This document shows, piece by piece, positions 2,558 to 2,716 of a DNA stretch of 64,000 nt. Made by a program: the position numbers and the translations under genes. Every line of letters starts with the position of its first letter. Positions within the stretch are counted from its first letter, which is position 1. The stretch comes from Escherichia phage KookSpook: the sequence record PP925842.1, one strand, 5' to 3'. The notes beneath the pieces were generated by a model. That model worked only from the letters and a program-made list of their open reading frames with translations, was not told the DNA's origin and searched no databases.

Positions 2558-2716
2558 TTAAATTACTTTTTCCAATTCATTAGCTATGGCTTTAATCTTT
2601 TCAAAGTTTACATCACTGATAACTATTCCTTCCAGAGCCATAGAAGCTCTGGCATTTTTCATAGCAGATTCATAGATTTTTTCTATTTCCTCTGGTGTAA
2701 ACTCTTTACGTTCCAT
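2558..2716 (-). CDS. small protein with VbhA-like Fic-inhibitor motif (S-x-x-x-E-G)
   Basis: true start likely M17 of track ORF (track N-terminus is translated tRNA-Asp); sequence EEIEKIYESAMKNARASMALEG resembles antitoxin VbhA inhibitory helix. Confidence 0.4.
   Translation of the reverse strand: MERKEFTPEEIEKIYESAMKNARASMALEGIVISDVNFEKIKAIANELEKVI

Follow-up and report, generated by a model that had tools for sequence, protein, structure and literature searches.

Antitoxin substitutes supplied by phages act as anti-defence factors, as is the case for Dmd of T4 against RnlA/LsoA and for pseudo-ToxI of phage ΦTE. Among Fic-domain toxins, the closest described systems are two class I pairs, in which the inhibitory helix is supplied to the toxin by a separate small protein (PMC5033356): VbhA, the antitoxin of VbhT in Bartonella schoenbuchensis (PF18495; PDB 3SHG, 3ZC7), and EcFicA (YhfG), the antitoxin of EcFicT in E. 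coli (PF10832; PDB 5JFF, 5JFZ). Antitoxins of this class carry an [S/T]xxxE[G/N] motif within a helix, adjoin a Fic gene whose product has no inhibitory helix of its own, and are encoded directly upstream of ficT in one operon. In EcFicA, S24 and E28 of the motif contact R2 of the Fic motif (PMC5033356).

A second group of Fic proteins has been linked to phage defence. SoFic has been reported to be protective against T5, and to be neutralised by EcAS1, a 47-aa neighbour protein (PMC12249575). PDC-S04 of the PADLOC collection is a candidate system, not a validated one, and had no activity in one native-host study (bioRxiv 10.1101/2024.12.20.629700). No phage-encoded Fic inhibitor or phage counter-measure to Fic was found in the literature. 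Here we describe a 52-aa protein of a T5-like phage for which neutralisation of a host Fic toxin is the best-supported hypothesis of its putative function.

A 52-residue gene within a phage tRNA cluster

The stretch of DNA analysed (hereafter the window) comprises 64 kb, and its DNA-polymerase region is 91–98% identical to Tequintavirus and Epseptimavirus genomes (T5-like, Demerecviridae). Within a run of 19 minus-strand tRNA genes lies an ORF that extends from ATG to TAA, in the following setting:

2558..2716, minus strand: coding sequence of the 52-aa protein, stop codon counted in (TAA at 2558–2560); PHROG 19286
2727..2731, minus strand: AGGGG ribosome-binding site, 10 nt 5' of the ATG, read directly from the sequence
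2735..2811, minus strand: tRNA-Asp(GTC), directly upstream, 17–18 nt from the ATG of the 52-aa gene
2482..2556, minus strand: tRNA-Arg(CCT), beginning 1 nt past the stop codon of the 52-aa gene

A first-pass annotation made from the letters of the sequence had placed a product of about 52 aa at 2558–2716, and the exact translation is indeed MERKEFTPEEIEKIYESAMKNARASMALEGIVISDVNFEKIKAIANELEKVI, with 52 residues. The same annotation had named a different frame or start as a finding that would count against it; the start proved sound on three grounds. The AGGGG site is suitably present, the start position is the same in the homologues of other phages, and a longer ORF of 68 codons, opening at an upstream ATG at 2764, would start inside tRNA-Asp (2735–2811), so that the 52-aa product is the sensible version. 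Since tRNA-Asp lies directly upstream of the ATG, the arrangement implies co-transcription of the gene with the tRNA cluster.

The ORF is a real gene. It is under purifying selection, with Nei-Gojobori dN/dS values of 0.10 against HildyBeyeler, 0.14 against Erwinia phage KEY and 0.17 against bombadil, and its product matches PHROG 19286, a phage protein family with no assigned function, from end to end (E 4.7e-33, 114 bits, residues 1–52 on profile positions 1–52 of 52). Searches with tblastn located the gene in approximately 110 phage records, from phages of Salmonella, Escherichia, Klebsiella, Proteus, Erwinia and Pectobacterium. A further tblastn match in Microviridae (bajarodmic virus) has no motif and was rejected as spurious. 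The copies of HildyBeyeler, Erwinia phage KEY, Klebsiella phages and bombadil likewise sit inside a tRNA cluster, and in HildyBeyeler (BASEL Bas33, gene bas33_0104) and Erwinia phage KEY the spacing of 17–18 nt and 1 nt to the neighbouring tRNAs is kept while the flanking tRNAs themselves differ. Because 110 records carry the gene, compared with 532 that match the DNA-polymerase region, it is an accessory gene. Such a patchy distribution, together with a location inside the tRNA cluster, where its neighbours are small ORFs of no assigned function, is that expected of a phage anti-defence protein.

Several other features of the window were recorded. A 65-aa lipoprotein with a MKKVLLLSVLLLTGC lipobox (1827–2024, minus strand) matches PHROG 6073 ('Rz-like spanin') and lies inside the tRNA cluster, far from any lysis cassette. 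The 96-aa ORF at 3277–3567 (minus strand) looks like a fusion, because two separate PHROGs (7042 and 34563) are matched end to end. Two Cys-rich small ORFs (5366–5551 and 6394–6627, both minus strand) match PHROG 6060 ('antitermination protein Q-like'). At 6891–7919 (plus strand), a 342-aa ORF on the strand opposite to its neighbours has a His/Asp/Glu-rich N-terminus and a Gly/Ala/Gln-rich body, and matches PHROG 8119 (no assigned function) with E 2e-183. Lastly, ARAGORN called a tRNA-Ser with the unusual anticodon ACT at 10336–10409 (minus strand).

Motif, predicted fold and comparison with known Fic antitoxins

The structure of the 52-aa protein predicted by AlphaFold2 (mean pLDDT 91.6) consists of a helix (residues 8–28), a loop (29–34) and a second helix (35–51), which map to the window as follows:

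2627..2644, minus strand: S25-M-A-L-E29-G30 (residues 25–30), the [S/T]xxxE[G/N] inhibitory-helix motif
2633..2695, minus strand: predicted helix 1 (residues 8–28), the candidate inhibitory helix
2564..2614, minus strand: predicted helix 2 (residues 35–51), preceded by the conserved S34-D35 and containing the conserved F38 and K40

The hexapeptide S-M-A-L-E-G, which the first-pass annotation had matched to (S/T)xxxE(G/N), is thus present at residues 25–30, and S25...E29-G30 falls at the C-terminal end of predicted helix 1, so that the class I feature of a motif within a predicted helix is found here. Like the 52-aa protein, EcFicA is a two-helix protein in which the motif, SRRLEG, ends helix 1 (PMC5033356). 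The likeness to VbhA that had been seen in the residues NARA also holds, since N-A-R-A-S of the 52-aa protein parallels N-A-L-A-S of VbhA (PDB 3ZC7_B, 3SHG_B). The bare hexapeptide, however, is at no more than chance level, with 36 occurrences of [ST]xxxE[GN] in the six-frame translation of the window; what gives the motif meaning is its place in the structure, together with the homologues. In an alignment of 34 family members S25 is invariant and G30 is conserved in at least 90%. The motif Glu is Asp in several members of this alignment and Ser in two, mostly in phage or orphan copies or in members whose context was not looked up.

The first-pass interpretation is supported in part: its link to Fic and the orphan status hold (see below), and membership of the VbhA family itself found no support in profile comparison. 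The 52-aa protein scored 12.4 bits (E 0.16, residues 18–36 only) against the Pfam VbhA model (PF18495), for which the gathering threshold is 25.9 bits; only one of 21 family members matched this model at E≤10, and one of 21 matched the YhfG model (E 0.15). PDB searches with the single sequence and with profiles of the family gave no antitoxin match, and VbhA, EcFicA (FicA) and BiaA (3SHG_B, 5JFF, 5NH2_B) were not retrieved by the family profiles at E≤10. When aligned with hhalign to a narrow, mostly Bartonella-like VbhA alignment, a family profile (A3) gave P=0.014 and a probability of 3% over 23 columns, with N-A-x-A-S-x-x-L-E-G in the expected register, and a profile of Fic-paired members (A6, see below) gave P=0.033 against the same narrow alignment. 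The family HMM scored 1.7 bits on VbhA, a value equalled or bettered by 195 of 3,000 shuffles, and 2.2 bits (51 of 3,000 shuffles) on a sequence taken to be that of EcFicA, which agrees with its S24/E28 numbering (PMC5033356). Likeness to the known antitoxins VbhA, EcFicA and BiaA is limited to approximately 11 residues, N-x-x-A-S-x-x-L-E-G. No VbhA relatives were found in the viral contigs searched.

On sequence grounds, the 52-aa protein falls outside both the VbhA and the YhfG family of Pfam. The first-pass annotation had stated that an absence of profile similarity to Fic antitoxins beyond the hexapeptide would speak against it, and with only VbhA considered its proposal would have come near to refutation. 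VbhA is a small, helical protein like the 52-aa protein, and the two have the N-A-x-A-S-x-x-L-E-G pattern in common in the same register; unlike VbhA, the phage protein has two predicted helices rather than three and no Fic partner. In scans of Pfam, NCBIfam and PADLOC models, none reached threshold with the 52-aa protein, and the sub-threshold matches to DUF5733 (E 0.0098), VbhA (0.16) and BH0509 (0.029) were treated as noise. The bacterial members tested had no NCBIfam or PADLOC match. Sequence comparison places the protein in a separate, unannotated family of putative Fic inhibitors.

Bacterial homologues and their convergent Fic genes

A profile built from phage members only (A1) retrieved a Serratia protein (P0028) from 5.8 billion sequences with E 3e-6. 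HMMER, run exhaustively over 1.8 billion representatives, gave only 26 proteins in all, among them bacterial proteins of 65–77 aa with which the phage family has the core N-x-[RK]-x-S-x-x-[IL]-E-G-x-x-x-[ST]-D-x-x-[WF]-x-K in common. Two giant repetitive proteins (P0038, P0044) produced many matches to the motif segment only, and were set aside as low-complexity or chance. Aligned with hhalign, the phage-only profile and a profile built from Fic-paired members only (A6) matched with a probability of 98.4% (E 4.4e-15, 41 columns).

Also related is WP_024166655.1 of E. coli S10, an unannotated 'hypothetical protein' to which the 52-aa protein is 49% identical over 39 aa (BLASTP, E 2e-10). The homology covers the two-helix core with the N..xS..(I/L)EG…(S/T)D..(W/F).K pattern of this family, and the motif and conserved residues are the same in both proteins. 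On these alignments, the 52-aa phage protein is clearly a true homologue of the bacterial proteins of the WP_024166655.1 type. The two differ in length and setting: the bacterial protein has 71 aa, with an N-terminal extension of ∼30 aa (…NVTVVIRGG…) that the phage protein lacks, and is encoded tail-to-tail with a Fic gene with a 4-nt overlap, while the phage copy, flanked by tRNA genes, is an orphan.

Genomic context was looked up for twelve of the representatives. Five of the twelve adjoin Fic sequences, with a convergent (tail-to-tail) Fic gene of ∼337 aa at P0030, P0043, P0048 and P0037 and a C-terminal Fic remnant at P0040. The stop codons of the two genes overlap by 4–6 nt at P0030, P0043 and P0048, as they also do in E. 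coli S10 (loci L009, L010, L016, L021), and the gap is 35 nt at P0037 (L031) and ∼16 nt at P0040 (L007). In E. coli S10 the pair, made up of WP_024166655.1 and the Fic family protein WP_023155462.1, is carried on a tRNA-Leu island; its locus was matched in 36 of 5,426 complete E. coli genomes. Further pairs occur in Yersinia thracica, Phytobacter and a gammaproteobacterial metagenome-assembled genome (MAG). One Fic pair lies in a prophage, between replication and lysis genes. In the Fic-paired small proteins (n=7), identity falls as low as 28%, and the motif S, E and G are invariant in all seven. The 52-aa protein keeps every invariant core residue (N21, S25, E29, G30, K40), with L28 in place of I and F38 in place of W.

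The overlapping stops lie at 3873–3876 in L021, 6195–6198 in L010 and 428–431 in L009, at a TTAA-type or TAA/TTA junction. Because the 4-nt overlap is kept across lineages with ∼30% protein identity, it suggests transcriptional or antisense coupling.

The Fic partners have an intact HPFxDGNGRxxR signature, with R284 of WP_023155462.1 corresponding to R2 of HPFEDGNGRTMR, and no conserved internal [ST]xxxE[GN]. Chance expectation for an internal motif is just 0.19 per protein, so its absence, being near chance level, was downgraded as evidence. Among solved structures, the partners come closest to the class I toxins EcFicT (5JFZ, 5JFF), the top match, and VbhT (3ZCB, 3SHG), with E of ∼1e-12; the toxins paired with the bacterial homologues are in this respect VbhT-like and EcFicT-like. 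The partners also match PDC-S04 (E 1e-31 to 1e-33) and SoFic (1e-12 to 1e-14). A neighbouring Fic with no conserved inhibitory helix of its own is found beside the bacterial homologues and not beside the window gene, for which the earlier remark that no Fic gene is adjacent can be widened, as the Fic/Doc signature H.F.[DEN][GA]N[GK]R is absent from all six frames of the entire 64 kb. The arrangement with the antitoxin gene directly upstream of ficT in one operon was not observed. All bacterial pairs are convergent, in contrast to VbhA and to EcFicTA, in which ficA is upstream; EcFicTA is moreover chromosomal and vertically inherited, whereas the pairs described here occupy islands and prophages.

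One prophage lineage (L010) has a tripartite locus, in which a 94-aa YafN/Phd-like gene (7211–7495, minus strand) overlaps by 1 nt the start of the Fic gene (6195–7211, minus strand), followed by the convergent motif-bearing small protein (6001–6198, plus strand). The first of these matches NCBIfam YafN with E 4e-17, below the cut-off, and Pfam PhdYeFM with 24.6 bits, and could be the real antitoxin of that Fic. Gene calls at the E. coli and L031 loci include no Phd-like gene upstream of Fic, and the gap upstream of Fic in L016 has no spanning open frame.

This locus bears on the reading in which the small proteins of bacteria do not inhibit Fic in any way, and are regulators or conserved neighbours whose link to Fic is positional and whose motif is coincidental. 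The separate Phd/YafN-like gene upstream of Fic in L010, a convergent layout atypical of type II toxin-antitoxin pairs, the commonness of the hexapeptide in the six-frame window and the lack of significant similarity to VbhA/FicA are all consistent with it. Nevertheless, we regard it as very improbable, given that the pairing is kept across lineages only 28–31% identical with S..(I/L)EG invariant in all paired members, that the motif falls exactly at the end of predicted helix 1, and that the Fic partners belong with VbhT and EcFicT, a type that depends on an inhibitor in trans (PMC5033356). Through its Fic-paired relatives (98.4%, E 4e-15), the profile comparison gives the 52-aa protein a real evolutionary link to Fic enzymes.

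The island of E. coli also holds a second Fic gene, of the SoFic type (class II) and directly upstream of the class-I-like one (5098–6173 in L021 and 3831–4907 in L022, both minus strand). Like SoFic, which is used in anti-phage defence and has the small neutralising neighbour EcAS1, the partners described here are Fic-domain toxins; SoFic differs from them in belonging to class II and in carrying an N-terminal inhibitory helix itself (SSRIEN in L022). The SoFic-type gene with the SSRIEN motif has a frameshift in strain S10, and is intact in L022. No 47-aa ORF, the size of EcAS1, was found in the gap between the SoFic-type gene and Fic in L022, and the sequence of EcAS1 is not given in PMC12249575. 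Also encoded on the tRNA-Leu island are a MobH relaxase and a GNAT acetyltransferase; the gene of the latter has a small convergent neighbour.

Other relatives occur away from a functional Fic gene. In the gammaproteobacterial MAG (L027) the Fic gene (4213–4986, minus strand) is a pseudogene and the small gene is intact. Serratia-type orphan copies (L004, L012, L020, L023, L025) are found in defence islands with no Fic nearby, and their neighbours include CBASS (CD-NTase and Cap15), a ThsB TIR protein, Gabija-like OLD-TOPRIM and UvrD, AbiGi and TacA1-like genes. A distant relative with Asp for the motif Glu (P0042; L032 126–371) is encoded on a phage-like contig, where its neighbours are a radical-SAM activase-like gene and a DNA topoisomerase IV-family gene (626–1096 and 1156–2514). 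FicT toxins target gyrase and topoisomerase IV, which makes the latter neighbour curious.

The Fic-paired forms are extended at the N-terminus by ∼30 aa, which include a β-strand-like V-x-[VI]-x-[IV]-[RK]-G segment. This extension is missing from the 52-aa protein, which has only 7 residues before its helix 1, and it may be needed for Fic binding. The phage copy might have moved off Fic proteins to become a small helical adaptor of some other host or phage partner, with the motif retained by descent only. The absence of the extension found in all Fic-paired forms, the change of E29 to D or S in some phage and orphan relatives, and the occurrence of both the phage gene (no Fic in 64 kb) and the Serratia defence-island copies without a Fic nearby would fit such an exaptation. 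Two observations argue the other way and lead us to consider it unlikely, if still worth weighing: the residues invariant in the Fic-paired members (N, S, E, G, the aromatic and K) are the most conserved in the phage proteins, which are under strong purifying selection, and antitoxin-only relics beside a decayed toxin, as in L027, are how toxin-antitoxin pairs usually end, and account for the orphans.

A putative role against host Fic toxins

We therefore favour, at slightly better than even confidence, the reading in which the 52-aa protein is an orphan minimal inhibitor of class I type, an anti-toxin or anti-defence factor that silences a host Fic toxin. It would be a two-helix, N-terminally shortened phage homologue of bacterial proteins encoded tail-to-tail with VbhT/EcFicT-like Fic AMP-transferase toxins. 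By analogy with the VbhA–VbhT and EcFicA–EcFicT crystal structures, helix 1 would dock on the Fic domain and bring S25 and E29 to the active site, where, by pairing with the final arginine of the Fic motif, E29 would block productive ATP binding. The gene would be expressed from the phage tRNA cluster. In a T5-type infection host gene expression is turned off and host DNA is degraded, and therefore a labile inhibitor encoded by the host would be lost and the Fic toxin released. The phage product might then replace or supplement the host's own inhibitor, such that a Fic toxin encoded by the host, an island or a prophage would stay silent, which would amount to an anti-abortive-infection or anti-defence function. 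The plausibility of a link to defence draws on the matches of the Fic partners to PDC-S04 and SoFic, the protection against T5 reported for SoFic (PMC12249575), the Fic pair within a prophage and the orphan bacterial copies in defence islands. The analysis shows the gene, its conservation, homology with the Fic-paired proteins, the conserved motif and a predicted fold; binding, inhibition and a defence role of the Fic partner are inferred from comparative genomics.

The phage protein could alternatively bind a host Fic and modulate it, for example by turning it into a deAMPylase that reverses AMPylation of gyrase, topoisomerase IV or EF-Tu, or by retuning it for the benefit of the phage. A Fic-1–AntF toxin-antitoxin complex is reported as a deAMPylase (PMC13327609), and for SoFic both AMPylation and deAMPylation of EF-Tu have been reported (bioRxiv 10.64898/2026.07.09.737422); the homology and motif evidence is equal for modulation and for inhibition. 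Still, obstruction of the active site, as in VbhA and EcFicA (PMC5033356), is the simplest reading of a conserved S...EG helix, and we hold modulation to be distinctly unlikely.

As an inhibitor of a host toxin, the 52-aa protein would resemble Dmd and pseudo-ToxI, each a stable inhibitor supplied by a phage against a host toxin that is otherwise released on infection. Unlike Dmd, it is, on sequence grounds, a homologue of the putative cognate inhibitor. A broader proposal, to which we give somewhat less than an even chance, is that not only T5-like phages but also two or more other phage lineages carry a stripped-down inhibitory-helix module captured from a previously unrecognised class-I-type Fic toxin-antitoxin family with convergent genes, and that the module would constitute the first known viral inhibitor of abortive infection based on Fic and AMPylation.

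Fic-domain proteins such as SoFic and the PADLOC candidate PDC-S04 are counted among anti-phage systems, and the family described here adds putative Fic inhibitors not picked up by the present models of Pfam and NCBIfam. Its convergent layout of toxin and inhibitor genes is unusual, and is kept across lineages of ∼30% identity. With its putative function, the gene also adds to the view that the T5 tRNA cluster serves as a reservoir of counter-defence functions. If the broader proposal is true, the pairs of a 337-aa Fic and a small protein on enterobacterial islands and prophages would represent a genuine anti-phage system, one that would otherwise be triggered by the host shut-off of T5-type infection.
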